From: a virus
Taxonomy: Duplodnaviria; Caudoviricetes
Virus record (IMG/VR): IMGVR_UViG_3300030330_001337
Location: 1 to 49,568 of that record
Strand: one strand, 5' to 3'
DNA: 49,568 bases
This document shows, one piece after another, positions 4,219-36,282 of the stretch (its first letter is position 1; every line of letters begins with the position of its first letter). Position numbers and translations under genes: made by a program. A model generated the notes under the pieces. That model did not search any database, was not told the origin of the DNA, and saw only the letters and a list, made by a program, of their open reading frames with translations.

Positions 4219-4404
4219 ATGAAAAAATTTGAATGCGAATGCTGTGATCACGAAGTAGAAGTAACTTCTGCTGTCATCAAGATGCATGAAGGTAAAGCTG
4301 TCTATGATATTAAGTGTCCATGTAATAAGTACATGAAACTTAGTAACCCTAAAAAAGGTTTCCCTAGTATAGGGGGTATGGATAAGTATGGAAGAAGTAA
4401 GTAA
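4219..4404 (+). CDS. Small zinc-ribbon protein (FmdB-like)
   Basis: FECECCDH ... KCPCNKYM Cys pairs; stop overlaps TerL start. Confidence 0.7.
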   Translation: MKKFECECCDHEVEVTSAVIKMHEGKAVYDIKCPCNKYMKLSNPKKGFPSIGGMDKYGRSK

Positions 4405-6527
4405 TGAATCTTGTAGAAATAGATGGATACGAAGATAAAGGGATTAAGATCGACCCTAACGGTACGCAAGGAGAGAGTATTGAACTCCATGGGTTACTCG
4501 TTGTGTTACCGAAAAAACCGAAGCGATCTAAAATTCTCTTCCATGAAAAGCCAAAGGATATGCAGATGTGGCAACGCATTCCTATGCCCAAAGAATTGCA
4601 AAATGTACGAACTATGGATGAGTGGTTCGAGAAGCCTCCCGAGTTTAGAAAGAAGTTTTCTAGCTACATCGAAGGGGAGTTTGAGCGCAGGCGTAACGGT
4701 GTTTGGTTTTACAATCATGGCACGCCTACGTACATTACAGGACGACACTATATGTTTTTACAATGGTCGAAAATTGATATCGGCTATCCATCATACCTTA
4801 CCTATCAAAATGAAATATTTCTTCACATGGCTGCGTGCGAAGCTGATCCCCGTTGTATCGGTCAGCTATATACTAAGTGTAGGCGTTCTGGCTATACTAA
4901 TATCTGTGCTTCTGTTCTTGTTGACGAGTCTACACAAGTTAAAGACAAGCTTTTGGGAATACAGTCAAAGACTGGTAAAGATGCTCAGGAGAATATCTTT
5001 ATGAAGAAAGTAGTACCGATATTCAAATCGTACCCTTTCTTTTTTAAACCGATACAAGACGGAACAACAAACCCAAGAATGGAGCTTGCTTTTCGTGAGC
5101 CATCAAAGCGTATCACAAAGAATAACAAAACATCTTTCAAAGGAGATGCGCTAAACACCATAGTCAACTGGAAGAACACAACAAACAATGCTTACGATGG
5201 TGAGAAGCTACATATGCTATACTTGGATGAGGCAGGTAAGTGGGAGAAGCCAGTAGATATAAGAGAAGCTTGGAGGATAGAAAGAACTTGTTTGATTGTT
5301 GGTAGAAGGATTGTAGGCAAAGGTCTTGTTGGTAGTACAGTAAACCCTATGGATAAGGGTGGTAAAGAATATAAAACGCTATGGGAGGATAGCGATCCAA
5401 ACGAAAGGAATGCTAACGGAAGAACAAAGACTGGACTTTATAGAATATTTATACCTGCATATGAAGCTCTAGAAGGTTTCTTTGATGTGTATGGTAACCC
5501 AATAATAGATAATCCTAGCGAACCTATAGAAGGATTAGATGGAGATCTTGTTGGATTAGGAAGTAAAACTTATTTAAAGAATGAAAGGGACAGCCTTAAA
5601 GCAGATGCATCAGAACTAAACGAAGTTGTTAGGCAGTTTCCGTTTACAGAGGAAGAAGCGTTTAGAGATAGCATAGACGGCAGCTTGTTTAATATAGGTA
5701 AGATTTATCAGCAGATTGATTTTAACAACAATCTATTTCCTACTCCAGTAGTGAGAGGTAATTTTATGTGGAAAGAAAAAGATAAAGAGGTTATATTCTC
5801 TCCAGATCCTAACGGTAGATTTAGAATGTCCTGGCAACCAAAGGATAGTAATAGAAATAAATTCATAGAAGAGTATGGTAAAAGAAAACCAGGGAATGCT
5901 CACATTGGTGTAGGGGGAGTCGATAGCTATGATCTAGATGCAACGGTTGACGGTAGAGGGTCTAAAGGAGCTATGCACTTATACAATAAGTTTAACATGG
6001 AGGGTCTAAGTAACTCATTTGTAATAGAATACGCTTCTCGTCCAGATCTAGCAAGTATATTTTATGAGGATGTTCTTATGTGTGCATTCTACTATGGATA
6101 CCCTCTTCTTGTGGAGAACAACAAATATGGTATCGTAAGATACTTTGAATCAAGAGGTTATGATGGTTATCTTATGGATAGGCCTAAACATCTTAGCTCT
6201 TCTACATCTAAAGTAAACGTAAAGACAAAAGGAATCCCATCAAACTCACAAGATGTTATACAGTCACATGCTCAAGCAATAGAAGCATACATTCATGATC
6301 ACGTTGGAGAAAACGCTCAAACAGGTGAGGTAGGGCATATGTATTTTAATAGAACTCTTGAGGATTGGATTGGCTATAAAATCAACGATAGAACCAAGTT
6401 TGACTTAACGATAAGCTCTGGTTTAGCTCTTCTTGCTGCACAAAAAGTAAAGAAAGAAAAGCCCAAAAAGAAACTTAATGAAACAAAGTTTTTTAGAAAA
6501 TACAAAGTAAAACAATGGCACTCTTAA
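4404..6527 (+). CDS. terL: Terminase large subunit
   Basis: KCRRSGYT Walker A variant, LYLDEAGK Walker B, GST coupling motif, GGVDSYD nuclease Asp, LVENNK, terminal FDLTISSG. Confidence 0.93.
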   Translation: MNLVEIDGYEDKGIKIDPNGTQGESIELHGLLVVLPKKPKRSKILFHEKPKDMQMWQRIPMPKELQNVRTMDEWFEKPPEFRKKFSSYIEGEFERRRNGVWFYNHGTPTYITGRHYMFLQWSKIDIGYPSYLTYQNEIFLHMAACEADPRCIGQLYTKCRRSGYTNICASVLVDESTQVKDKLLGIQSKTGKDAQENIFMKKVVPIFKSYPFFFKPIQDGTTNPRMELAFREPSKRITKNNKTSFKGDALNTIVNWKNTTNNAYDGEKLHMLYLDEAGKWEKPVDIREAWRIERTCLIVGRRIVGKGLVGSTVNPMDKGGKEYKTLWEDSDPNERNANGRTKTGLYRIFIPAYEALEGFFDVYGNPIIDNPSEPIEGLDGDLVGLGSKTYLKNERDSLKADASELNEVVRQFPFTEEEAFRDSIDGSLFNIGKIYQQIDFNNNLFPTPVVRGNFMWKEKDKEVIFSPDPNGRFRMSWQPKDSNRNKFIEEYGKRKPGNAHIGVGGVDSYDLDATVDGRGSKGAMHLYNKFNMEGLSNSFVIEYASRPDLASIFYEDVLMCAFYYGYPLLVENNKYGIVRYFESRGYDGYLMDRPKHLSSSTSKVNVKTKGIPSNSQDVIQSHAQAIEAYIHDHVGENAQTGEVGHMYFNRTLEDWIGYKINDRTKFDLTISSGLALLAAQKVKKEKPKKKLNETKFFRKYKVKQWHS

Positions 6528-13647: not shown

Positions 13648-15039
13648 ATGGCATTTGCTAAAGCAAACGCAACGGCTACTAACGTAGGACCTAAAGATTT
13701 TGATGCTACACCAGGGAATTACACTTCTCTAGGATCATTACTTGTACCTACTAAGCCTGATGTGCGTGATTTATACATTCAAACATTCGGTGATCAAGGA
13801 ATCACAGGAATGTTAGACGTAACTGGTGCAAAGCGTTCAGCTGGTTCAGCTGACGAGGTACACTGGTACGAAGAAGGTCGTATGAACAGAAAGCTAGACC
13901 TTACGCTTTCTTCTGGTACGGCTACTATTAACTCAGTTGACGGAGTTGCTCCATCAGCTACAGGAAAAGGTGCTGAAGATTTCGTTCAGCTCAACGATGT
14001 TATCTTACTTTCAAACGATGAAAGAGTTATTGTTACTGGTTCTATCGGAACTGGAGATACTGACACTTTTGTTTGTAAGCAGATGACTGACGATGCTGCT
14101 AGTGACGGAAGTAACTTAACTGGTATTATTATCGGTAATGCTTACGCTCAAGGAACAGGTCAGCCAACGAAGCCATTCGAAATGGACCTAGTGTTACGTA
14201 AGAACCCTTACATCATTGCTAAGGAGACTTTCCACGTTAACGGTTCACAGGCTACTAACATCGGTTGGTTAAACGTAGACGGTCAGTACATGTGGTACTT
14301 AAAAGGTGAGATGGATGCTCGCAGAAAGTTCATGAATACTCGTGAGGCTATGCTAGTATTTGGTCAAACTAAGTCTTCATCTGGAGCTCCTGCTGCAGGT
14401 GGTGTTACTGTAAACGGTACTACTGTTACTGGTTCTGAAGGTTACTTCCAAGCTGTAGAAAACAGAGGTATTGTTTCTGCTACTGCTGCAGACCAAGACT
14501 TCAACACTTTAGCTGACCTTGATTCAATTCTTATTCAGTTAGATAAAGAAGGCGCACCAAAGGAGTACGCTATGTACATTGACAGACAAACTTCTTTGAA
14601 TGTTGATGACATGCTAGCTTCAGGTGTTGCTACACAAAACACAGCTGGTTTAGCTGGTCAGTTCGGTGCATTTAACAATGACGCTGATATGGCTGTACAG
14701 CTAGGATTCAAATCATTCACTCGTGGTGGTTACACTTTCCACAAGCATGATTGGAATCTTCTAAACGGAGAATATGCTGCTGGACACAGCACATACCAAG
14801 GAGCTCTTATTCCTCTTGCAAACGTAGTAGATCCTAAGAATGGTGGTTCTAACCCATCTCTTGAGATGAACTACAAGGCTGCTGGAAACTACAGCCGTGA
14901 GATGGAGCATTGGGTTGAAGGTGGTGGTGTACTAGGATACGCAACTAACGGTGATGACTTAGCTAAGTTCCACTACCGTTCTGAGTGTAACCTATGTGTA
15001 CGTGCTGCTAACCAACACGTTGTTCTTAAGGGTAACTAA
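13648..15039 (+). CDS. Major capsid protein
   Basis: 463 aa; VHWYEEGR E-loop-like segment, GNAYAQGT, G..Q...RG, LGFKSFTRGGYTFHKHDW; strongly biased codon use; followed by hairpin. Confidence 0.88.
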   Translation: MAFAKANATATNVGPKDFDATPGNYTSLGSLLVPTKPDVRDLYIQTFGDQGITGMLDVTGAKRSAGSADEVHWYEEGRMNRKLDLTLSSGTATINSVDGVAPSATGKGAEDFVQLNDVILLSNDERVIVTGSIGTGDTDTFVCKQMTDDAASDGSNLTGIIIGNAYAQGTGQPTKPFEMDLVLRKNPYIIAKETFHVNGSQATNIGWLNVDGQYMWYLKGEMDARRKFMNTREAMLVFGQTKSSSGAPAAGGVTVNGTTVTGSEGYFQAVENRGIVSATAADQDFNTLADLDSILIQLDKEGAPKEYAMYIDRQTSLNVDDMLASGVATQNTAGLAGQFGAFNNDADMAVQLGFKSFTRGGYTFHKHDWNLLNGEYAAGHSTYQGALIPLANVVDPKNGGSNPSLEMNYKAAGNYSREMEHWVEGGGVLGYATNGDDLAKFHYRSECNLCVRAANQHVVLKGN

Positions 15040-24705: not shown

Positions 24706-27700
24706 ATGAATGATAAGGCGATAGAATATATATTGCAGCAATATGAGCTAGGTAAAGATTCAGATAAAATATATGCTGATCTTGTTTTTAACCCTATGTT
24801 TAAATTAGAGAAAAATGTTGCTAAAAAATTAATTGAAGAGACTTTAAAAAAAAAAGATCCTGGTATAGAAGCTACATTCCAAGAGCGGAATCCTTTTGTA
24901 ATAACTCCTTCAGTAGATATTCAATCTCCATCGGAAACATTCGATTCTCAATTACCAGAAGAAAAGCCTGAAGAAGGGGAAACTGACATCCCTATAATTT
25001 CTGACTTAGCTGACTTTACAGAAGGTATACCTGTTTTAGGTGGTCTTTTTGATTTTGCAGAGGACTTTTCGAGAGCTTTTAGTAGTGGGGTTACACAAGG
25101 AACTGCAGGCGTTGACGCATTAGAAGCTGCTTTTGGAAAAGCAGAAGATGACGATCTTCAAGAGATTGTAGATGCAATGATCGCTCAAGATCAAATTGGA
25201 CTGTCAGATGAGGCTATTGCTTTGCAAAAACAGATAGATGAACTGTATGCAAATGGAGGGAGTAGCTTTGATGCTTTTTTATTAAGAGGTTCAAGTTTTG
25301 ATAATTTTAGCGCAAGTCTTGAAATCCTAGGGAACAGCTTAGGATTAATGCTTGGTGCAACTGTAGATGACTATGGTAAAAATACACTTGGGGCATTAGG
25401 TGTTGGTGCTACAACCAGTGCTGCAATAGCAGCTCCTGTGGGCGCTGTAGCGGCATTAAATCCTGCAGGTGCAGTTACAGGGTCAACAGCTTTTGGAGGA
25501 ACATTTCTTGCTACTTTACCAAAAACAACTATGGGCGCTTTCTCTGGTATTATAGATGCAGAGGCTACAATAATGGAGATAGCTAGAGAAGAGCTTATGT
25601 CTGCAAACAAAGAAATCAATGTAGAAAACTTAAGAGCTGTATTTGAAGATCCTGAGATAAGATCTAGAATGCAAAGTAAAGCTGCTGCTAGAGGTATTAC
25701 AATAGGTCTTATTGATGGTTTAACGATGGCAGGTACTGGTAAGGCTGTTTCAGGATTAGCAAAAGCAGGGGTATCTACTTCAAAAAGATTTGCAGTTGCT
25801 ACAACAGGAGAAATGCTAGGTGGATCAGTAGGTGAAGCTACCGCTCAGCTTGTTACAGAAGGTGAGTTGAATTGGGATGAAGTTTTAATGGAAGGTGTTG
25901 CTGAAGGTCCTATGAGTTTGGTTACTTATGCTGCTACTAAACAATCACAGTATAGATTAAACGGACAGCTTGTTAGCTTAGAAGAGTTTAACAACTATCT
26001 AAATAGCGGAGAAAGACTGCAGAGCTTTGAGGTTACTGGTGATGCAGAAGTAAAAGATAGGGCTAATAAAATAAAGAAAGCTCAAAAAACAAGTGTAGAT
26101 GAGGTAGAACAGATGCTTCAAGAAGAAGCTGCAAAAAGAGGTATAAAACTTTTTGGTCCATCTTTAACGAGAGCTGTTGGTCATGCATTTAAAAAAGTAC
26201 AAGACGCAAAGAATTCTAATAACAAGACAGACATAAACAAAGCAATTTCTTCTGCAGTAGATTTTGTTCAGCAGAGAAACAAAAAAGATATTTATGATCT
26301 TAATGCTTCAGAAGAAAGTTCAGGTTCTAGAGGTAGAACTATGGGTAGTTCAAAGTATGATAGTCAAGGTTCTGCTGCTGACAAACTTTTAAAAAGAGCT
26401 GCTCAAATTAGAGAAGAAGCTAAGCAAAAAAATCCTTCTGAAAGAAAATCTTTACTACAAGTAGCTGAGTCTTTAGAGGTTCAAGCTGAAGAAATTATAT
26501 CAGAAAGATCTGAAGTATATAGAATACTTTCTGTAATTAACCCTCAGCTAGCAGATAAAATACAACAATTAGATCTTCAAGCTAGAAACATAGAAGACAG
26601 GTTAAAAAAAGCTGATATCTCTCCAGAGCTTAGAGAAAGCTTAGAGCAAACATTAAAAGATGTTGTAGGAGAAAGAGTTGAGCTAGAGGCTTCAATTGAT
26701 ATATCTTCTGAGGTAGATGCAAATGAAGTTACAGCAGATTATTCTCAAGAAATACAGACAAGAAATGATAATATAGAATCAGAGATAAGTGATCTTCAAG
26801 GCACTATAGAAACCCTTCAAGAAGAGCTGTCTACTGAAAACGCAGATCCTGATGCATTGGATGCGGCTAATGCTAGAATGGAAGACTTGCTAGAAGAAAG
26901 AGCTGAACTTCAAGACGCTTTATCTGAATATAATGCAGCAAAAGAAAATTTATCTAATCTATCTGAAGATCTTGGTAGAGAAGGTTCTGTTGATTCTATA
27001 AATGCTATTGATAAAGCAAATGAAAGATTAGCAGAAGCTAAGCAAGCAATAGCTGATATACTTGGTATAGATACGACAACAATAGAAGAAGTACAGGCTG
27101 ATTTGAATGAAACCGCAGAAGCTGTTGAAGGGACTACGGAAGCAGAAACTACGGAAACAGAAACTACTTCAGAAAAAATAAATGAAGCAGATCAGTCTAA
27201 TATAGATACCTCAGATATTGAAGAAGAAAATACTAAAACTGAAGTCATAGGTAAAGTGCCTGATGAGTTTGGAGGAGGTGATATTAAAAGAACTTCTACT
27301 ACGACAGTTCCTGAAGCAGCACAAAAAACCCCTAGATCTAAGAATAACAATCCAGCGTGGAGAGAGGGAATGGCTGATGGGCAAATAACAGCTTCCCAAG
27401 CTAGAGCTCTAAACAACTTGCAAAAGCTTCTAGATAAGTTAGGTATAGAAATATACATATACTCAACTCCTGAAGCTGCTGCTAAATACAAAGACGGAGA
27501 TTGGGGTGGTCTTTATAGTGGTGGAGCAGTTCATATAAATCTAAGCCAGATAAATGAATCTCAAAAGCTAGAGTCAGAAAGTGGATTTAGAAGAACAAAG
27601 AGCTTTGAAGAAACTCTGCAAGAAGAAGTAATGCATGGAATTATAGGTCCTATATTTTCTGGTGCATTTAAAAACAATCCTAAGGCTACCGTTAAGTATA

Positions 27701-30700
27701 GAAGTCAGCTAAACAAAATATTAAATAAAAATAAAGACTTAAAAGATAGGGTTGAAGCTAAGGAGAAAACATACAGAGATGCAGGGAAGTCTGAGGATGT
27801 AATATTTGAAGAAACTATTATAGAAGTTTTGTCTGCAATAGCAGGTGGAACTGAGGCTGTTAATACTGGAACTCTAGATCAAATTAGAGTTTTAATAAAC
27901 AATATTCTAAAAACAGCTGGTATATCTTACAGAATACAGAGCACTAATGATCTAATAAATTTTGCAAACAAATTTAAAGATGCTCAAGAAGGTAAGAATG
28001 TAAATCTTGAATCAGAGATTAACGCTGCTCAGTCTGAAAGAGCTAAAGCTGGTCAACGTGGTGCTGCGGATATAGATGCAAGTAAGGATAGAACTTCTTC
28101 TATGATATCGCCTGCTAAGATCCCTACAAATGAAGATGGGACTGTAACTGTAAAAATATTTAAAGAAGGTTATAGAAGGCTTGATGATGGATTTAGAAAA
28201 GCTATAGGAGCTTTCCCAGAGGATAGAACGTTTAATGATCAATGGCATTTTATAAACTGGTGGAGAAGAGTAGCGAAAAACAACAGCGACTATGTTTCTT
28301 TTTATACAAAAGATGACACTCCTATTGATGTTGAAAGAATAAACAGATACAGATCTAGCGAAAGAGAAAGTTTAGCTTTAACACCTGCAGAATCAGACAT
28401 TAAAGAGATAAACAGGATGGTTAGTGCCGCTCAATCTCAAGGCATTTTAGATCCTATTGTAGCAAAAAGAATAAGACAGAAGATAAGATCAAAATCTAAT
28501 AAGTTTAGGTACTTTAATGAAAGAGGGTTAACTGCTGAAAAAGAACAATATTCTAAAAATCAAAAACCTGTTGTAGCTGAATTTAAAACTTTTGTAGAAG
28601 GTATCATAGATAAAAATGCTAAAGACAGGAATATAGATTTTAACTTTAGAGGAGATGATGATGTTAGAAATTCAATATTATTGTCTAGAGAAATATTGAA
28701 TACAGATGCTAATAGCAGAATAAACTACGGAAAGGTTGGTGACTTATTAGGAAAAATTACAGGTATTAAACCTAAAACAAGAGTTCAGACTTATGATTTT
28801 TTAAGAGGTGAATTAGAAAAAAGGTTTACAAATACAAATGATGCTGTTGCCCACTATAGCAGTTTATTGGGTGGTATTATTGCAGACCCTCAATTAAGGT
28901 CTGACATGTTTGGTGAAGAGAATCCTATTGAGTTTTTTACCAATTACCAAAAAGAAGCTGAGTCTCTTATAGATAAGCTTTTGGCTGATGGTGATATTAC
29001 TGGAGACAGAGTGGATAACCTTGCTAAGCTTAATTACTTTATTGCTTTACTATCTGCTAAAAATCAATCTTCTACAAATATTAATGCTGCGGTAACATTA
29101 TTAAAAGACTCAGAGAAGTTTAAAATAAATGATCCTCTTGGTATATCAAAAGACTTTATAAGAAAAGTTAGAACTGGAAAGATAGAAGGTGTAAGCAATT
29201 TAGCTAGACATGCTATAGCTAGGGGTTTAGAAAAACTTATAGCTGTAGTTAATAATGATGTAGCTAGTATTGAAGGAATGCCTTCTACAATAGTTGACAA
29301 TTTAAAACAAGGTTCTTCATTCATAAAAGACGGAGCCGTTGACTGGATGGGATTAACAGAATTCTTATTGTCTCCTTATGAAGGTAGCAGAGTAAAAATA
29401 CAAGGGGATGTGGTTTCTCAGCAGATATTTGGTCCAAAGATTGGAGCTTGGCTTTTAAACATGAACCAAGGTTTATTCCCTCAAATGTCAGTAGATGGCA
29501 AAAGATTATCTGATGTAATTACTATTGATACACATGTTTTAAATACATCTGCTTTAGTATTGGGAGGCTATGTAGATGCTGGTGCTGCTGCTGGATATCA
29601 TGCGCAAAAAATAAATAGATTAAAGCAAGAATATGACGCTCCTCAAAACGAATTACTAACTGAAGTTCAGTTTGATAAAATTGAAAGAGCTAGAGCTGCC
29701 CTGTCGACTCCAGAAGAGGCTAGGAGTAAAAGACAAAATACGCTTATAAATGATGCTGGTAGAATTATAAGAGAACAAGTTCTATGGTGTCAAAAAACAA
29801 TAGAGTTTTTACAGGTCGAAGGAAGAGATAAAGAGGCTAGAAGAATAGAAAGGGCTTTGGATAATATTATAAATCCTGTTGTTTCTGAATCTATGCGTCT
29901 AAAGAGAGAGTCTAGAAAAGTAGTTGAATCTATTAGACAATCTCTTAACGATACATTTGGAACTGAACTCACAAACTCTCAAGTAGGTCAGCTTATGTTT
30001 GCTGATAGACAAGCGTTTAGCTTTAAATTATTTAATGATGACGGAACTGTTAACACTAACAGCTTAGATTATAAAACTTATGCTAACTCATTAAAGGGAT
30101 TGTCTAGCATTGATCAAAGACCATCAGCATCAAACGATAACATGTCAGCTTCATACATGATATCTCCTTTAGAGAAAATGCAAAAGGCAGATGAGTCTCC
30201 TTTGTATAGAGCAAGAACAGCTTCAGAAGTATTGCTGATGAAGAACGGAAGGCGAATCAATAATAGAGAAGTTAATGAAGCGCTAAGAAGTGATGCTGTT
30301 TCAAGAAGAATATTAGAAAAAAATAACTTTGTAAAAAACGATCAAAAGGTAGGTGTTAGACTAAATCTTAATGTTCTTAAAAACACTGGAGTTCCAGTTC
30401 AAACAGTTCATGATAAAACAGCGACAGGAGAAGCTCTTTTGTATGCTCCATCTGTTGTGCTTAAAAATGTTAAGTTAAATGTAAATCAAAACGCTAGAAA
30501 CAAAATAGTTACATTCCAAGAAAATAAGTTTCCAATGGCTAGTGTTGACGGAAGCTTTGTAACTACAAACCTAGACGAACAGAATTACAATGGAGTAAAA
30601 GCTTTCTTTAATCCATTTAAGCACAATGTTTTTGTAGATGCGTCTGGTAGACCAATCAAGTCTGCTAGCGAAGCAACTGTTGTGGGTAATAATGTTTACC

Positions 30701-33639
30701 TAAGAGGTGATATTGAGTACTACTCTTTTGACGATCCTATCTTAGATAAAGGAAGGGTAGAGTCTGCTGAGCAAAATGCTAAAAGAATAAAAAGAGGACC
30801 TAAGTATAACAAAGGACTCAAGAGGTTTGTTATGTGGTCAAAGAGTCAAGGTGTTGAGTTTGTAAATAACTTAGAAGCTGAAGCGGCATATGACAATATG
30901 CCAATAACTTCTTTAGTAGCTCTCAATGAAAGCGAAGTGGTTAATAACATGGAAGAGGCTCAAGACAGAGCTTCTATGATGTTGAAACTCAGAGCTACTG
31001 CTGGTAGAGGTGCAAGAACATATACTGCTGTTAGGGATCAGATTATAAATAATCCTTCTAACTATTTTACACCACAAAAGTTAGAAGAGATAAAAGATAA
31101 GCTTACAAACAAAAGCGATCAAGATCTTGTTGAAATGATGAGTGGTGAAGGCTTAAGTAATTTACAAAATAGGAATGATGACATAGGTGTTTTAGCTGTT
31201 TCTGAGCTTATAAACAGAGCTGTTGCAGCAGGAAACATGGATGCAATACCTGGTCTTATAAATCAAGCTTCTCAAATTGGTACTACTGTGGGTAGAATCA
31301 TGAGGCACTTAAGAGAGTTAAAATCATCTACACCAGTTTCTATCGTACAAACAATAGTGAAGGCCGTTGAGGCAAATGGCAATAGGCTATCTGCAGATCA
31401 AATGACTAGACTAGAGGGTATATCTGGAGAGTTATTTAGACTGCAGGCTGAGCATGAATCTCTAACTAAAAGAGCTATTGCTGGAGAAAACGTAGATGCT
31501 GAACTAAATGCTAAAACAAAAGAGCTAAAATTAGTAGAGAGAAGCCTTGATACTTTTGCAAACGCAGTTATTGAAAGAGGATGGGGGCAGATAGGAACTA
31601 TGCTTATACAGGGTAACTTGCTTACTCCAATGTCTCAAATAACAAACGTTGGTGCTAACCTTGTTAATGCTATAGGTAAAGTTGGTGTAGACATAATTGC
31701 TTTGCCTACAGAAAAACTAATTAATGCATTTGGAATAGAATCTCCTATGAAGAGAAACTACTCTATTAATGCTTACATGTATGGGATTAGAAAGTTTGGA
31801 ACTGGATTTGTAGAAGCTTTAGATTCTATTGTTACTGGTCAAGAGTCAGATGTTACTGAGTGGAGAATACATAGAGGATTTGCTCCGTTTAGATCTTTGA
31901 TGTCTGCTATGGGTAAAGGAGATTTACCTTTAGGTCCTGACGGTAAAGCATCATTAAGTCAAAGAATAAAACTTGGTGTTCAAGGTACGCTAGGTATACC
32001 TGCAGAGACTATGTTTAGGTTCTTATCTCTTGGTGATACTCCTTTTAGAAGGTATGTAGAAGGCATGGAGCTTTACAGGGCTGGATTGAATATGGGTCTA
32101 GAAGGTGATGCTCTCATTGACTTTATGAAGCATCCTAACAAAAAAGCTTTAGATGCTGCGCAAAGAGAGGGTAGAAAGCTTACATTCCAGGAGCAAACAA
32201 CGTTGTCAAATGTAGCTGAAAATGTAACTAAGACTTTTGAAGACATTATGGCTTCTGCATTGACATGGCTTCCAGGTGTAGACGGAAAAGCTTTTGCTAA
32301 GTTTATGATAAGATCTAACTTACCTTACCTAAGAACACCAGCTAACATATTGATGGAAACCTTAACATATGTGTCTCCTTATGTAGCTATACCTAGAATC
32401 ATGAAAAAGCTTCAAGAAGGAAATGCAAGGGAAGCTGCAGAAAACTTTGGTAAGCTTACACTAGGAACAATGGCTGCTCAAACTGCAACAATATTAGTAA
32501 AGGAAGGATTAATTTCAGGTAACATAGAGTGGGATGAAGATGAAGAAAAAAATATCGCATACGATCAGTTCCCTCCTAACAGTATTAATGTAAGCGGTCT
32601 TCAAAGATGGTTGAAAGGAGAAGATACTTCTCATCAAAGTGATGACTACTTTATATCTTATAATAAACTAGGAGTTTTAGGCGCTATTATTGGCGCTACA
32701 GCAAAGTCGTCTAATAAAGAAGATTTGAAGTCTAGAGATTACTCTGAAACTTCTTTTGCATTACATGCAGTTCAAGATGCATTTGGTGTAGGGGCTTTCT
32801 CTTCTATGTCATACATGATGGATCAAAGCTTTATGCAGGGAATGAATACATTGATAAATGTTATTTCTTCAGCAGATGCTAGCGACTTTGAAAGAAATTT
32901 TGAAAACTGGTCTAGAACTACATTCCAAGCTGTATCAGCAACAGCCCTACCTAATACTCTGTCAGCGTTATACAGAGGTAATAGAGAGTTTTTGCCTGAC
33001 ACACGAACAACAAAAGATGCTTCTTTAACAGATAGGATCTTACAGAGAATGAACTACACAATTAAGGAAAGAACTTTTGGTTTATCAGGTGTTCCTGTTA
33101 GAATAAACTGGAAGGGAGAGCCTATTAGGCAAACGCCAAGAGGAACCACAGGTATGGTTTACAATCTGTTTGATATTACAAAATCTAGACAAGGTGAAGA
33201 TGATCCAGTATCAAACGAAATATACAGGTTGTATGAACAAACATACCAACTTACTAAAGCTGTTGGTACTCCAGGGTATGCAGAAAAAAGAAAACTAAAT
33301 GTACCTAATGTAGGTTCTAAAGAAATAAGAATGTTAAACAGAATGGGATTAAATTATAGCTGGATGAATGATCAAGAATTCATGGCGGAAAGATTATATC
33401 TCAATACAGATCAAATGAACAGACTTATGGCTGCTTCTGGAAAAGAGAGATATGCAGAGCTTGAAATGCTAATGAGTACACCTAAGTATCAATCTATGAC
33501 TGATCAGCAAAAGATAGAAGCTTTAGATGAAATAAATGAAAATTATAATAGTGCAATAGAGATAAAGGGTGGCAAGTTTAAAAACCACACTCTCGTTTTA
33601 TTCGAAATTATGCAAGAAATATATCAAAATGAAAGATAA
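24706..33639 (+). CDS. Giant (2977 aa) internal virion/polyvalent protein
   Basis: G/A-rich hydrophobic segment, long coiled coil, degenerate zincin (QEEVMH), LS...N...A / GPK / TIDTH domain, amphipathic C-terminal region; position typical of a large ejection protein. Confidence 0.8.
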   Translation: MNDKAIEYILQQYELGKDSDKIYADLVFNPMFKLEKNVAKKLIEETLKKKDPGIEATFQERNPFVITPSVDIQSPSETFDSQLPEEKPEEGETDIPIISDLADFTEGIPVLGGLFDFAEDFSRAFSSGVTQGTAGVDALEAAFGKAEDDDLQEIVDAMIAQDQIGLSDEAIALQKQIDELYANGGSSFDAFLLRGSSFDNFSASLEILGNSLGLMLGATVDDYGKNTLGALGVGATTSAAIAAPVGAVAALNPAGAVTGSTAFGGTFLATLPKTTMGAFSGIIDAEATIMEIAREELMSANKEINVENLRAVFEDPEIRSRMQSKAAARGITIGLIDGLTMAGTGKAVSGLAKAGVSTSKRFAVATTGEMLGGSVGEATAQLVTEGELNWDEVLMEGVAEGPMSLVTYAATKQSQYRLNGQLVSLEEFNNYLNSGERLQSFEVTGDAEVKDRANKIKKAQKTSVDEVEQMLQEEAAKRGIKLFGPSLTRAVGHAFKKVQDAKNSNNKTDINKAISSAVDFVQQRNKKDIYDLNASEESSGSRGRTMGSSKYDSQGSAADKLLKRAAQIREEAKQKNPSERKSLLQVAESLEVQAEEIISERSEVYRILSVINPQLADKIQQLDLQARNIEDRLKKADISPELRESLEQTLKDVVGERVELEASIDISSEVDANEVTADYSQEIQTRNDNIESEISDLQGTIETLQEELSTENADPDALDAANARMEDLLEERAELQDALSEYNAAKENLSNLSEDLGREGSVDSINAIDKANERLAEAKQAIADILGIDTTTIEEVQADLNETAEAVEGTTEAETTETETTSEKINEADQSNIDTSDIEEENTKTEVIGKVPDEFGGGDIKRTSTTTVPEAAQKTPRSKNNNPAWREGMADGQITASQARALNNLQKLLDKLGIEIYIYSTPEAAAKYKDGDWGGLYSGGAVHINLSQINESQKLESESGFRRTKSFEETLQEEVMHGIIGPIFSGAFKNNPKATVKYRSQLNKILNKNKDLKDRVEAKEKTYRDAGKSEDVIFEETIIEVLSAIAGGTEAVNTGTLDQIRVLINNILKTAGISYRIQSTNDLINFANKFKDAQEGKNVNLESEINAAQSERAKAGQRGAADIDASKDRTSSMISPAKIPTNEDGTVTVKIFKEGYRRLDDGFRKAIGAFPEDRTFNDQWHFINWWRRVAKNNSDYVSFYTKDDTPIDVERINRYRSSERESLALTPAESDIKEINRMVSAAQSQGILDPIVAKRIRQKIRSKSNKFRYFNERGLTAEKEQYSKNQKPVVAEFKTFVEGIIDKNAKDRNIDFNFRGDDDVRNSILLSREILNTDANSRINYGKVGDLLGKITGIKPKTRVQTYDFLRGELEKRFTNTNDAVAHYSSLLGGIIADPQLRSDMFGEENPIEFFTNYQKEAESLIDKLLADGDITGDRVDNLAKLNYFIALLSAKNQSSTNINAAVTLLKDSEKFKINDPLGISKDFIRKVRTGKIEGVSNLARHAIARGLEKLIAVVNNDVASIEGMPSTIVDNLKQGSSFIKDGAVDWMGLTEFLLSPYEGSRVKIQGDVVSQQIFGPKIGAWLLNMNQGLFPQMSVDGKRLSDVITIDTHVLNTSALVLGGYVDAGAAAGYHAQKINRLKQEYDAPQNELLTEVQFDKIERARAALSTPEEARSKRQNTLINDAGRIIREQVLWCQKTIEFLQVEGRDKEARRIERALDNIINPVVSESMRLKRESRKVVESIRQSLNDTFGTELTNSQVGQLMFADRQAFSFKLFNDDGTVNTNSLDYKTYANSLKGLSSIDQRPSASNDNMSASYMISPLEKMQKADESPLYRARTASEVLLMKNGRRINNREVNEALRSDAVSRRILEKNNFVKNDQKVGVRLNLNVLKNTGVPVQTVHDKTATGEALLYAPSVVLKNVKLNVNQNARNKIVTFQENKFPMASVDGSFVTTNLDEQNYNGVKAFFNPFKHNVFVDASGRPIKSASEATVVGNNVYLRGDIEYYSFDDPILDKGRVESAEQNAKRIKRGPKYNKGLKRFVMWSKSQGVEFVNNLEAEAAYDNMPITSLVALNESEVVNNMEEAQDRASMMLKLRATAGRGARTYTAVRDQIINNPSNYFTPQKLEEIKDKLTNKSDQDLVEMMSGEGLSNLQNRNDDIGVLAVSELINRAVAAGNMDAIPGLINQASQIGTTVGRIMRHLRELKSSTPVSIVQTIVKAVEANGNRLSADQMTRLEGISGELFRLQAEHESLTKRAIAGENVDAELNAKTKELKLVERSLDTFANAVIERGWGQIGTMLIQGNLLTPMSQITNVGANLVNAIGKVGVDIIALPTEKLINAFGIESPMKRNYSINAYMYGIRKFGTGFVEALDSIVTGQESDVTEWRIHRGFAPFRSLMSAMGKGDLPLGPDGKASLSQRIKLGVQGTLGIPAETMFRFLSLGDTPFRRYVEGMELYRAGLNMGLEGDALIDFMKHPNKKALDAAQREGRKLTFQEQTTLSNVAENVTKTFEDIMASALTWLPGVDGKAFAKFMIRSNLPYLRTPANILMETLTYVSPYVAIPRIMKKLQEGNAREAAENFGKLTLGTMAAQTATILVKEGLISGNIEWDEDEEKNIAYDQFPPNSINVSGLQRWLKGEDTSHQSDDYFISYNKLGVLGAIIGATAKSSNKEDLKSRDYSETSFALHAVQDAFGVGAFSSMSYMMDQSFMQGMNTLINVISSADASDFERNFENWSRTTFQAVSATALPNTLSALYRGNREFLPDTRTTKDASLTDRILQRMNYTIKERTFGLSGVPVRINWKGEPIRQTPRGTTGMVYNLFDITKSRQGEDDPVSNEIYRLYEQTYQLTKAVGTPGYAEKRKLNVPNVGSKEIRMLNRMGLNYSWMNDQEFMAERLYLNTDQMNRLMAASGKERYAELEMLMSTPKYQSMTDQQKIEALDEINENYNSAIEIKGGKFKNHTLVLFEIMQEIYQNER

Positions 33640-34063
33640 AAAAATAAAAGACACAAAGCTAGGTAGCTGGCTAAAAAGCAAAGCTCCTAAAGTATTAGAT
33701 GTAGTTGGAGATCTACTACCAGATAGCGGTGGTTTAGGTGTAGTTAAGAATTTAATTGCAAACGATCCTGACGTAGATACAGATGACGGAATGGCTGCTG
33801 TTGATGCAGAGATTAAGTTTCAAGAAAACGTCACAGAGCGCTGGAAAGCAGACATGGGCAGTGACGTTAAATTAGCTAAGCTTATACGTCCTATAACTCT
33901 TATTTCTTTGATGGGAATGTTTATGGTTACTATGATGATTGACAGCATGGACAACGTTGCTTTTAATGTAAAAGACTCTTATGTATCTTTGCTTGAATTA
34001 TTAATGCTCACAGCGTTTGGTGCATACTTCGCTGGTAGAACTATAGAAAAGAGATCTAAATAA
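33629..34063 (+). CDS. Putative holin (3TM/GTA-holin-like)
   Basis: VTERWKADMGSD..LAKLIRP followed by two hydrophobic helices and GAYFAGRTIEK. Confidence 0.7.
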   Translation: MKDKKIKDTKLGSWLKSKAPKVLDVVGDLLPDSGGLGVVKNLIANDPDVDTDDGMAAVDAEIKFQENVTERWKADMGSDVKLAKLIRPITLISLMGMFMVTMMIDSMDNVAFNVKDSYVSLLELLMLTAFGAYFAGRTIEKRSK

Positions 34064-36282
34064 TGTTCCGTAAACTACTGATTATTATAGCTTTAATTGC
34101 ATTTGCTTCAAGCAATGCTTTAGCGCAGGGTAGTTGGTTGGATGTTCAGGTTCAAACAGACGAATATGCTGGAGAAACATCTTGGGAGATACTTAACGAA
34201 GACTCTGAGGTTGTTGCAGTAAGCCCTCCGTACCAAAATAATACTCTTCAAAACCACATGGTATTTCTACCGTCTGGTGATTACGAGTTCGTAATAATGG
34301 ACGCTTTTGGAGACGGCATATGTTGTCAGTTTGGAGAGGGTTGGTACAGGATAAGCAATAACTGCGGTCTGGATACGGCTAACTATGAGTTTGCTACAGC
34401 TACAGACACTATACCATTTACGCTTAACCCATGTATACCGCCTCTACCTGGATGTACTAATCCTGTGGCAAACAATTACAACCCTTGGGCTAATATTGAC
34501 AACGGAAGCTGCAATGTATTTGAGTGCGACTCTACAGAAACATTAGTGTCCATGGATCTTACGTTAGATACGTGGCCTGGAGAGACTGGATTTACATTAG
34601 TTGATTTAGCAACTGGTCAGTTTTATGATCAGGTAATACCTGGTGAGTTTGACTTTGGCGATCAGTTAGTTACGTACACATATAACTTTTGCGTTAGTCT
34701 AGGGTTCGAGTTAATACTAGTGGATGAGTTTGGTGATGGATTGAACGGGTATGCTTCAGGCGGTCAGGACGGGGCTTGTGTTATCACAGCATGCGACAGC
34801 GTGTTGTGGGAGTTAGAAGATCTTGCATTTACTACGTTTGATGATGGAAACACAATGTATTCTGGACCTATATTCCCAGATCTATGCCCTCCAGATCCTG
34901 ATGTTTATGGATGTATGGATGATGATTACGTAGATTATAATCCAGAGGCAACAGTTCAAGACACTTGTGAGACGCTACACACTTGGGGGTGTACAAATCC
35001 AGAAGCGTTAAACTACGACAGCACTGCAACCATAGCAGATCTATCAAGCCCATGTACTATACGTATAGTGTTGGAGGACGATGCAGGAGACGGATGGGGT
35101 AACTCTAAAATAGGAATGGTTCATGGTGATCAACAATGGTTGTTTACTGTAGGTCCTGGACAGTTTTCTCAGTCTTGGGATATAGTTTTAGACTCTGATG
35201 AAGAGGCCGATATATATTACTTCCAGGCTGGCAATCAACAGCAGTCATCTCAGGAACTTGCCTTTCAAACTTTACACAACTCTGTGTATGTTCTTAATGA
35301 AGCTGGAGATACTCTGATGTCTGAAGGTAGCAATCCATTTATAAATAATGGTCAAGGAGCTCTGCAGCCGTTTACAGGTCCAAACTGGACTGTGTATCAT
35401 TTTACTCCATACTGCGGAGACAGCTGCATACCTTATATATATGGGTGTACCGATGAGACTGCTTGTAACTACAACTCTGAAGCTAACACAAATTCTGAAT
35501 GCAACTATCCAGTTCAGTATTACGATTGCGATAACGCTTGCGTAAATGATAATGATAGTGATGGGGTGTGTGACGAGCTTGAAGTTGTAGGGTGTCAAGA
35601 TCCTACTGCGTTTAACTACAATGCACTAGCTACAGATGCAGGCGACTGCGTGCCAGTTATTTTTGGATGCACTGACCCTACGCAGTTTAATTACAATCCA
35701 GAGGCTAATACAGAAAACGGAGGTTGTATACCTTATGTATACGGATGTATGGACCCTTACGCATTTAATTACAACCCTGATGCTAATACAGAGTTAGAAG
35801 ATTCTTGTATCGAAGTGTTAGAAGACTGCATGGATCCAGATGCATTTAACTATAACGACTTAGCTAACACACCTAACGAAGAGGTTTGTTTATATGATGC
35901 AGGATGCATTACTGGTCCTGGAGAACCTTACTGGTTAAACGATGGGTGTTATGCATGGATTATAGATATAGATCCGTACTGCTGTGACGTTGCATGGGAC
36001 GAGACATGTGTGGATTTATACTCATATTGCGAACAGGGTTGGCCGCAAGGTGTTGTGGAAAATATTAGGGATATATCTGTATATCCTAGTCCTGCTCAAG
36101 ATGTCTTGAATATCAACGCTCCTTCTAAAGCGATTACAAGCGTATATAACGCACTTGGAGAAATTATAGTGTTAGACACTACAGAGAAAATTATAGACCT
36201 TTCACAGCTCTCTAATGGAGTTTACAAGGTTGTAATAAAATATAATGGAATAACTATCAACAAAAAAATTATTAAACTATGA
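34063..36282 (+). CDS. T9SS type-A sorting domain protein with signal peptide and Cys/Asp-rich repeats
   Basis: MFRKLLIIIALIAFASSNALA-Q signal peptide; three DxxGDG domains; eight GCxDxxAxNYNxxAxx..C repeats; CTD VYPSPAQDVLNI...IDLSQLSNGVY.V.I......KKIIKL. Confidence 0.9.
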   Translation: MFRKLLIIIALIAFASSNALAQGSWLDVQVQTDEYAGETSWEILNEDSEVVAVSPPYQNNTLQNHMVFLPSGDYEFVIMDAFGDGICCQFGEGWYRISNNCGLDTANYEFATATDTIPFTLNPCIPPLPGCTNPVANNYNPWANIDNGSCNVFECDSTETLVSMDLTLDTWPGETGFTLVDLATGQFYDQVIPGEFDFGDQLVTYTYNFCVSLGFELILVDEFGDGLNGYASGGQDGACVITACDSVLWELEDLAFTTFDDGNTMYSGPIFPDLCPPDPDVYGCMDDDYVDYNPEATVQDTCETLHTWGCTNPEALNYDSTATIADLSSPCTIRIVLEDDAGDGWGNSKIGMVHGDQQWLFTVGPGQFSQSWDIVLDSDEEADIYYFQAGNQQQSSQELAFQTLHNSVYVLNEAGDTLMSEGSNPFINNGQGALQPFTGPNWTVYHFTPYCGDSCIPYIYGCTDETACNYNSEANTNSECNYPVQYYDCDNACVNDNDSDGVCDELEVVGCQDPTAFNYNALATDAGDCVPVIFGCTDPTQFNYNPEANTENGGCIPYVYGCMDPYAFNYNPDANTELEDSCIEVLEDCMDPDAFNYNDLANTPNEEVCLYDAGCITGPGEPYWLNDGCYAWIIDIDPYCCDVAWDETCVDLYSYCEQGWPQGVVENIRDISVYPSPAQDVLNINAPSKAITSVYNALGEIIVLDTTEKIIDLSQLSNGVYKVVIKYNGITINKKIIKL

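Follow-up and report, generated by a model that had tools for sequence, protein, structure and literature searches.

The closest described counterparts of the locus studied here come from two bacteria and a phage. In Thermus thermophilus dnaX, the source of tau and gamma, the long product is read in the genomic frame and slippage on a homopolymer of nine or more bases yields a shorter product with the same N-terminus; bacterial RNA polymerase slips efficiently on nine A or T residues (PMC5009743). In Citrobacter rodentium tssM1, slippage on an A11 run gives two length variants of a component of an envelope-spanning machine, and both forms and their ratio matter (PMC4256274). Phage lambda makes gpG and gpGT from one morphogenesis gene, the two sharing their N-terminal part in a ratio fixed by recoding (PMC5009743).

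The locus described here resembles all three and departs from each. As in dnaX, the long form lies in the genomic frame and slippage would give a shorter product with the same N-terminus; however, both shifted frames of dnaX stop almost at once (PMC5009743), whereas the -1 frame of the present gene codes for a conserved tail predicted to fold, and the site lies 50 codons into a 2977-codon viral gene. Like tssM1, the gene would give two length variants by slippage on poly-A, but in tssM1 slippage restores the full-length form near the 3' part of the gene (PMC4256274), while here it would make a short form, with a tail of its own, near the 5' end. The likeness to lambda is that of one phage morphogenesis gene with two products, a common N-terminal part and a ratio set by recoding. 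The lambda site, however, is a ribosomal heptamer near the 3' end that gives a longer shifted product, a siphovirus tail chaperone (PMC5009743), while here a run of 9-11 A would give a shorter shifted product from a podovirus cargo gene. No published account of this slip site was found in a search of open-access main texts; closed-access work, the original proteomics on Cellulophaga included, may bear on the matter.

The window, by which we mean the whole 49,568-base stretch analysed, a single contig, comes from a flavobacterial podovirus with kin in the Pachyviridae, Pervagoviridae and Elemovirus, and the sequencing runs listed as containing its sequence are marine metagenomes, with no RNA run among them. 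The nearest capsids and portals are those of Flavobacterium elemo phages, Cellulophaga phi38:1 and Calle, and phi13:2 and phi18:3 (23-31% identity); by these capsid and portal matches, to Elemovirus, Pervagoviridae and Pachyviridae, the Crassvirales are not its closest cultured kin. By PHROG and Pfam, its genes run from terminase and portal through capsid, ring proteins and muzzle to two genes of intermediate size, a gene for 2977 aa and holin. The giant gene (24706..33639, + strand; an open reading frame call) is the last of the portal-capsid-ring-muzzle block, and from this position, compared with the crAss001 structure paper (PMC10172136), its product is a probable virion cargo or ejection protein. 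Its syntenic counterpart in phi18:3 carries a structural annotation from MS/MS. The sole Pfam domain in the giant protein is PF25735 (residues 1879-1998); it has no match among PDB sequences and no polymerase family in Pfam or PHROG, in a window that is possibly not the whole genome. The protein is mosaic, with coverage of 30-75% in most homologue matches, and a DLDGDG motif region in the N-terminal third, found in many homologues by alignment consensus, is absent from the window protein.

Elsewhere in the window, a 193-aa ATG open reading frame (4423-5004, +) overlaps the first part of terL (4404-6527) in the +1 frame and could encode the real small terminase subunit or be a case of overprinting; within terL the +1 frame is open for at least 40 codons at 25% of codon positions, far above other genes. 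Directly after the holin, a 739-aa gene (34063-36282, +) has at its C-terminal end a sorting domain for type IX secretion (PF18962, E 8e-9), and its product may, by this prediction, be exported via the host T9SS.

Codons 47-51 of the giant gene read TTA AAA AAA AAA GAT (LKKKD) in frame and contain an A10 run (24846-24855, +), a candidate slip site within KKK and the only homopolymer run of at least nine bases in the window. Lying inside a coding region, it has the length of at least nine A or T residues taken to define a slippage site. The 47 codons up to the run (24706..24846, +) encode a domain that, from the alignment, would be common to the long and short products; it is a predicted three-helix bundle, with helices 3-14, 19-27 and 36-51 in a model of the related protein P0122. 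Neither a search with the N-terminal 60 aa against longer proteins nor a look for a second copy of the domain at every locus examined gave a match. Behind the run, a hidden -1 frame of 38 codons and a TGA (24855..24971, +) would supply the basic tail, of net charge +7, of the predicted short product, with a 12-codon beta-hairpin core (24918..24953, +) laid out as aromatic-x-hydrophobic-x-hydrophobic-G turn followed by a hydrophobic/aromatic strand.

The initial annotation had described an A10 run with a -1 frame open for 40 codons past the heptamer to the TGA at 24969-24971, a product of 88 aa, and a +1 frame that closes almost at once. Each of these points was confirmed, the +1 frame ending at a TAG (24866..24868, +) three codons past the run and giving, should the run lose one A, a product of 53 aa. 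The T_TTA_AAA heptamer (24843..24849, +) that it took as the signal exists here and is incidental, conserved in just 2 of 36 clusters of related genes; the feature kept is a run of 9-11 A in any phase. Its remark on rare codons holds in part. CGG occurs once in the gene, at the site, as does one of the five TCG codons, but CGG is uninformative family-wide (3 of 1117 codons in the overlap region). TCG is raised about elevenfold in that region (58 of 1117 codons versus 442 of 96,359).

Taken without relatives, the window sequence is only suggestive. One A10 in its 13 large open reading frames is at chance level (P 0.42, synonymous resampling) and in-frame XXXYYYZ heptamers are frequent (45 in 10,267 codons of the window, 18 of them in the giant gene), so significance must come from relatives. 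A -1 stretch of at least 40 codons begins at 0.5% of codon positions (local P 0.01 given the amino acids), and four of 387 -1 segments in the giant gene are that long, the site's own among them.

Relatives were collected as proteins and as DNA. The matches listed include 120 protein homologues, 109 of them of at least 2900 aa, and KKK stands at residues 39-95 in 82 of these 109 full-length homologues, against 63 of 5514 equal windows elsewhere. In a 50-sequence alignment the K49 column is nearly invariant while the rest of the N-terminal region is highly variable, and the first domains in front of the KKK differ visibly from lineage to lineage. Two scans gave 107 DNA loci, 108 with the window. 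After removal of 15 with an open 5' end, 17 duplicates, 12 without a matching open reading frame of at least 900 aa and 5 below 1500 aa, 59 giant genes were kept, among which the window is L057. In 48 of the 59, a run of at least nine A lies within the opening 120 codons, and the remaining 167,828 codons hold none; the run is kept against synonymous change irrespective of codon phase. The run is A10 in 37 genes, A9 in 7 and A11 in 4. The 48 run-bearing genes collapse into 36 clusters, which are mutually related and therefore not independent samples; among them the run begins in all three codon phases and is preceded by T in 22, C in 11 and G in 3.

The run is distributed over the whole tree (FastTree, midpoint-rooted, C-terminal 900 aa, 48 rows). 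Eleven of the 59 genes are without it, with losses at no fewer than four places including the window's sister lineage, in which L011 encodes its lysines as AAG AAG and has a -1 frame that ends after 5 codons. Since the run is missing from these 11 genes, the short form would be either unnecessary or substituted in them. In 16 run-less open reading frames, a look near the start for a run out of frame gave none. In the record IMGVR_UViG_3300030406_001594 (14430-14441, between the end of L003 and the start of L002) a 10-base gap falls within an A-run and the next piece begins about 30 bases on, which is assembly trouble at the site.

The frame behind the run is conserved as well. The -1 frame is open for 14-52 codons in the 36 clusters (median 34.5), while a null from synonymous resampling has a median of 9.6 and never exceeds 19. 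It reaches at least 14 codons in all 36 clusters versus 37% in the null, and at least 28 codons in 27 versus 9.5%. The +1 frame has a median of 31 yet fits its own null at both lengths (27 of 36 versus 71%; 18 of 36 versus 42%), and a selected +1 product was rejected on that ground. The initial annotation had held that orthologues breaking the run with AAG or stopping early in the -1 frame would speak against dual coding; instead, 48 of the 59 orthologues have the run with AAA codons and no -1 stop falls before 14 codons in the 36 clusters. Of the serine codons in the overlap only 19 of 215 (8.8%) are AGY, versus 1974 of 6689 (30%) elsewhere (P 6e-13), a depletion expected if TC supplies Phe, Ile or Val to the -1 frame. 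Two further statistics, the expectation of all-AAA lysines in 2.8 of 36 clusters and the absence of T-ending codons (0 of 259), were discarded as circular because the genes and regions had been picked by the run and by the open frame. A length compensation between N-terminal part and tail was likewise unsupported (rho -0.24, P 0.16).

The -1 tails share a 12-residue motif of an aromatic residue, alternating hydrophobics, a Gly turn, a basic residue and a hydrophobic/aromatic strand, alignable across clusters whose protein bodies share as little as 24% identity. It scores above shuffles of the same tail in 23 of 36 leave-one-out tests, in which the training sites were placed using the full model, a slight leak. 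The other 13 tails fail, some of them appearing helical or Trp-rich. The tails of L039, L040, L087, L094 and L111, rich in Trp and Arg, match the hairpin motif poorly and are perhaps a second, helical type. When held out of the model, the window tail reaches 10.5 bits (P 0.024 against synonymous resampling with the 0-frame protein unchanged; P 0.022 against shuffles) and exceeds all 66 windows of the protein body. All 11 run-less genes are without the motif in the -1 frame (scores of at most 3.1). The run, its position, the open -1 frame and the motif are thus conserved together and lost together.

Pairwise comparison is less clear. Over 11 pairs, identity is 57% in the -1 frame (152 of 267), 63% in the 0 frame (178 of 283) and 52% in the +1 frame (138 of 266), so that in these comparisons identity is no higher for the -1 peptide than for the 0 frame. 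The ratio of position-2 to position-3 substitutions in the same pairs gives P 0.051 against upstream and 0.54 against downstream sequence, and codon-position tests in 8 close pairs give P 0.004 and 0.64. The 0 and -1 frames both look constrained. Where the initial annotation had proposed looking for a conserved run and a conserved -1 peptide in orthologues, the run, the open frame and the shared motif were found, while the pairwise tests gave weak results.

Across the family the predicted short products are 68-124 aa long (median 86), with tails that are basic (median +6) and aromatic (19%). When 152 candidate proteins of 33-105 aa were searched with the N-terminal alignment, five matched. P0122 (91 aa) and P0124 (80 aa) are the -1 products predicted for L081 and L036, read directly from contigs carrying a shifted run, and P0123, P0126 and P0127 are +1 forms (53-54 aa) of one close relative. 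P0053, a giant protein with an out-of-frame start, reads as a run-length variant. Each of these six is on one contig, and the single-contig short forms may be miscalls, rare mutants or RNA-derived, and so are not proof of expression. An exact-pattern scan of viral contigs for run-length variants gave one match, an A10.

An AlphaFold model of P0122, made from an alignment assembled from separate domain and tail rows, has three helices and three strands (60-67, 70-77 and 80-87), with mean pLDDT 83.9 and pTM 0.48. A Pfam search of the short forms gave no match at cut-off; in the ESM Atlas the best value was 0.79 and the tail had no match; and Foldseek of the model against PDB and BFVD gave none at E 0.001. 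The best VIA-align match (Z 6.4) covers the helical part only, a common arrangement, in a comparison that barely probed the tail.

Given the above, slippage on the run very probably gives the predicted short -1 product, a reading drawn from comparison of sequences. In the mechanism we propose, the A10 would be a conserved slip site at which RNA polymerase inserts one A too many into some of the transcripts. One added A would move reading into the -1 frame, and a single start codon would yield both the 2977-aa protein and an 88-aa protein made of the shared N-terminal helical domain and a basic, aromatic beta-hairpin tail. Two sets of RNA contigs (X21 and X23) had no contig over the site and so speak neither for nor against slippage. 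That RNA polymerase makes both products by slipping is, in our judgement, a reasonably well-founded best explanation; if slippage does occur, its being transcriptional and not ribosomal is fairly likely.

The ribosome could make the same two products by tandem -1 slippage on A_AAA_AAA or by sliding over consecutive AAA codons, to which we give perhaps a quarter of our belief. That heptamer is in phase in all 36 clusters and selection is seen on the -1 frame only. Moreover, -1 ribosomal shifts are common in phage structural genes, as in lambda G/GT (PMC5009743), and sliding has been seen to truncate products at three lysines, robustly at A11 (PMC4363877). However, seven bases suffice for a heptamer, yet all 48 runs are 9-11 long. 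The efficient bacterial form of the slippery heptamer, A_AAA_AAG, is present in just 3 of 36 clusters. Of the 48 runs, 44 are A9 or A10, on which there is little sliding in an E. coli cell-free system (PMC4363877). No stimulator is conserved. A Shine-Dalgarno-like element is found in 4 of 36, and the 3' flank shows no conserved stem-loop (family mean z -0.53). Flanks folding at z below -2 (6 of 36 on the 3' side, 7 of 36 on the 5' side) are in modest excess, to which the window does not contribute, its 3' flank having z 0.14 and its 5' flank being unfolded, so that the stem-loop test shows no stimulator there. The length of 9-11 in any phase, the few A_AAA_AAG and the want of a conserved stimulator together favour RNA-polymerase slippage.

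It is improbable that the run merely lowers output of the giant protein by leak or pause, or that KKK is a protein motif, with the -1 peptide a by-product of a Ser/Glu/Asp/Pro linker. The code itself turns a Ser/Glu/Asp linker into Phe, Ile, Val, Arg and Gly in the -1 frame, identity is no lower in the 0 frame than in the -1 frame, and tail length ranges over 14-52 codons. A protein motif would tolerate AAG, however, and these genes use AAA for only 12-68% of their lysines. An attenuator gains nothing by avoiding -1 stops, yet all 36 clusters avoid them and the +1 frame does not, and the motif beats nulls that preserve the 0-frame protein while AGY codons are depleted. The initial annotation had proposed dual coding by ribosomal or transcriptional slippage or by phase variation; the conservation of the run and the -1 frame supports dual coding, the polymerase is the favoured agent, and phase variation, in which genomes with A9 or A11 would turn the giant gene off, is the least likely and in our view highly improbable. 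The single-contig proteins of +1 length (P0123, P0126, P0127) and -1 length (P0122, P0124) and an out-of-frame A9 in four Pachyviridae records would fit it. Two cluster members, though, have their full-length form on 25 and 16 contigs, and the run-spanning contigs of five DNA runs (X12, X15, X17, X2 and X7) have no indel, although contigs drop rare variants. Homopolymer miscalls would account for the singletons, and no selection for a conserved -1 peptide would follow from switching off a probable core virion protein.

A like layout is seen in cultured phages. Syntenic giants follow the muzzle in the same gene order in phi38:1 (gp101), Calle_1, elemoF (gp18), Gundel_1 (gp074) and phi13:2, phi18:3, phi19:3 and phi46:3; unlike the family analysed above, they have no detected homology to the window protein, and tblastn with the last 977 aa of the window giant gave no match to them. 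An A10 stands behind a short first domain and before an aromatic, basic open -1 frame in elemoF gp18 (44 codons), Gundel_1 gp074 (30) and phi38:1 gp101 (24). Calle_1 has the same layout, its run read by eye, and the uncultured MW202828 has an A11 with a -1 frame open for 25 codons. The run at the site is the only one of at least nine in the stretches (22-33 kb each) of elemoF, MW202828, phi38:1, phi13:2 and phi46:3; Gundel_1 has several further such runs. Motif scores in the cultured phages are modest, at 9-14 bits (shuffle P 0.04 for elemoF, 0.21 for phi38:1). In phi13:2 (L115:18119-18394), phi46:3 (L117:18119-18439), phi18:3 (L118) and phi19:3 (L119), the four Pachyviridae records, the site has an A9 and the first domain is a separate small open reading frame, out of frame with the giant, while the homologous start of Gundel_1 has an in-frame A10. 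The A9 is either a homopolymer under-call shared by the four records or a real state that needs slippage. The first 600 nt of five cargo-region genes each in crAss001 and phi14:2 hold no A9. None of the cultured syntenic giant genes carries a frameshift annotation, and the available text of PMC7077304 mentions no frameshift.

What the short form does is a matter for tentative proposals. The shared N-terminal domain might load both products into the particle, the short form serving as a small cargo or adaptor with an amphipathic cationic hairpin and being made in a proportion that the length of the run sets, a role we regard as possible but doubtful. During assembly or ejection, the hairpin would then engage either a membrane or, in the portal-tail machine, a beta-edge. 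More speculative still is that the whole flavobacterial podovirus lineage hides, in its giant cargo gene, an unannotated small virion protein made by RNA-polymerase slippage, its hairpin a membrane-engaging ejection piece, and that the phi13:2-like A9 giants also depend on slippage, one added A giving the giant and two the hairpin form.

The slip site would explain why the annotation of four Pachyviridae genomes is oddly split, and it calls for caution, as assemblers and gene callers break at the run. As the cultured phi38:1, elemoF and Gundel_1 share the layout, the proposal is testable in existing phage-host systems, and an RNA-seq data set of SOLiD short reads, SRP066570, exists for phi38:1 (PMC5335546). 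If the proposal is true, widespread aquatic Bacteroidota phages, several cultured models among them, would gain an overlooked gene product, and the site would represent deeply conserved, productive poly-A slippage and true dual coding in a virion gene of a dsDNA phage.
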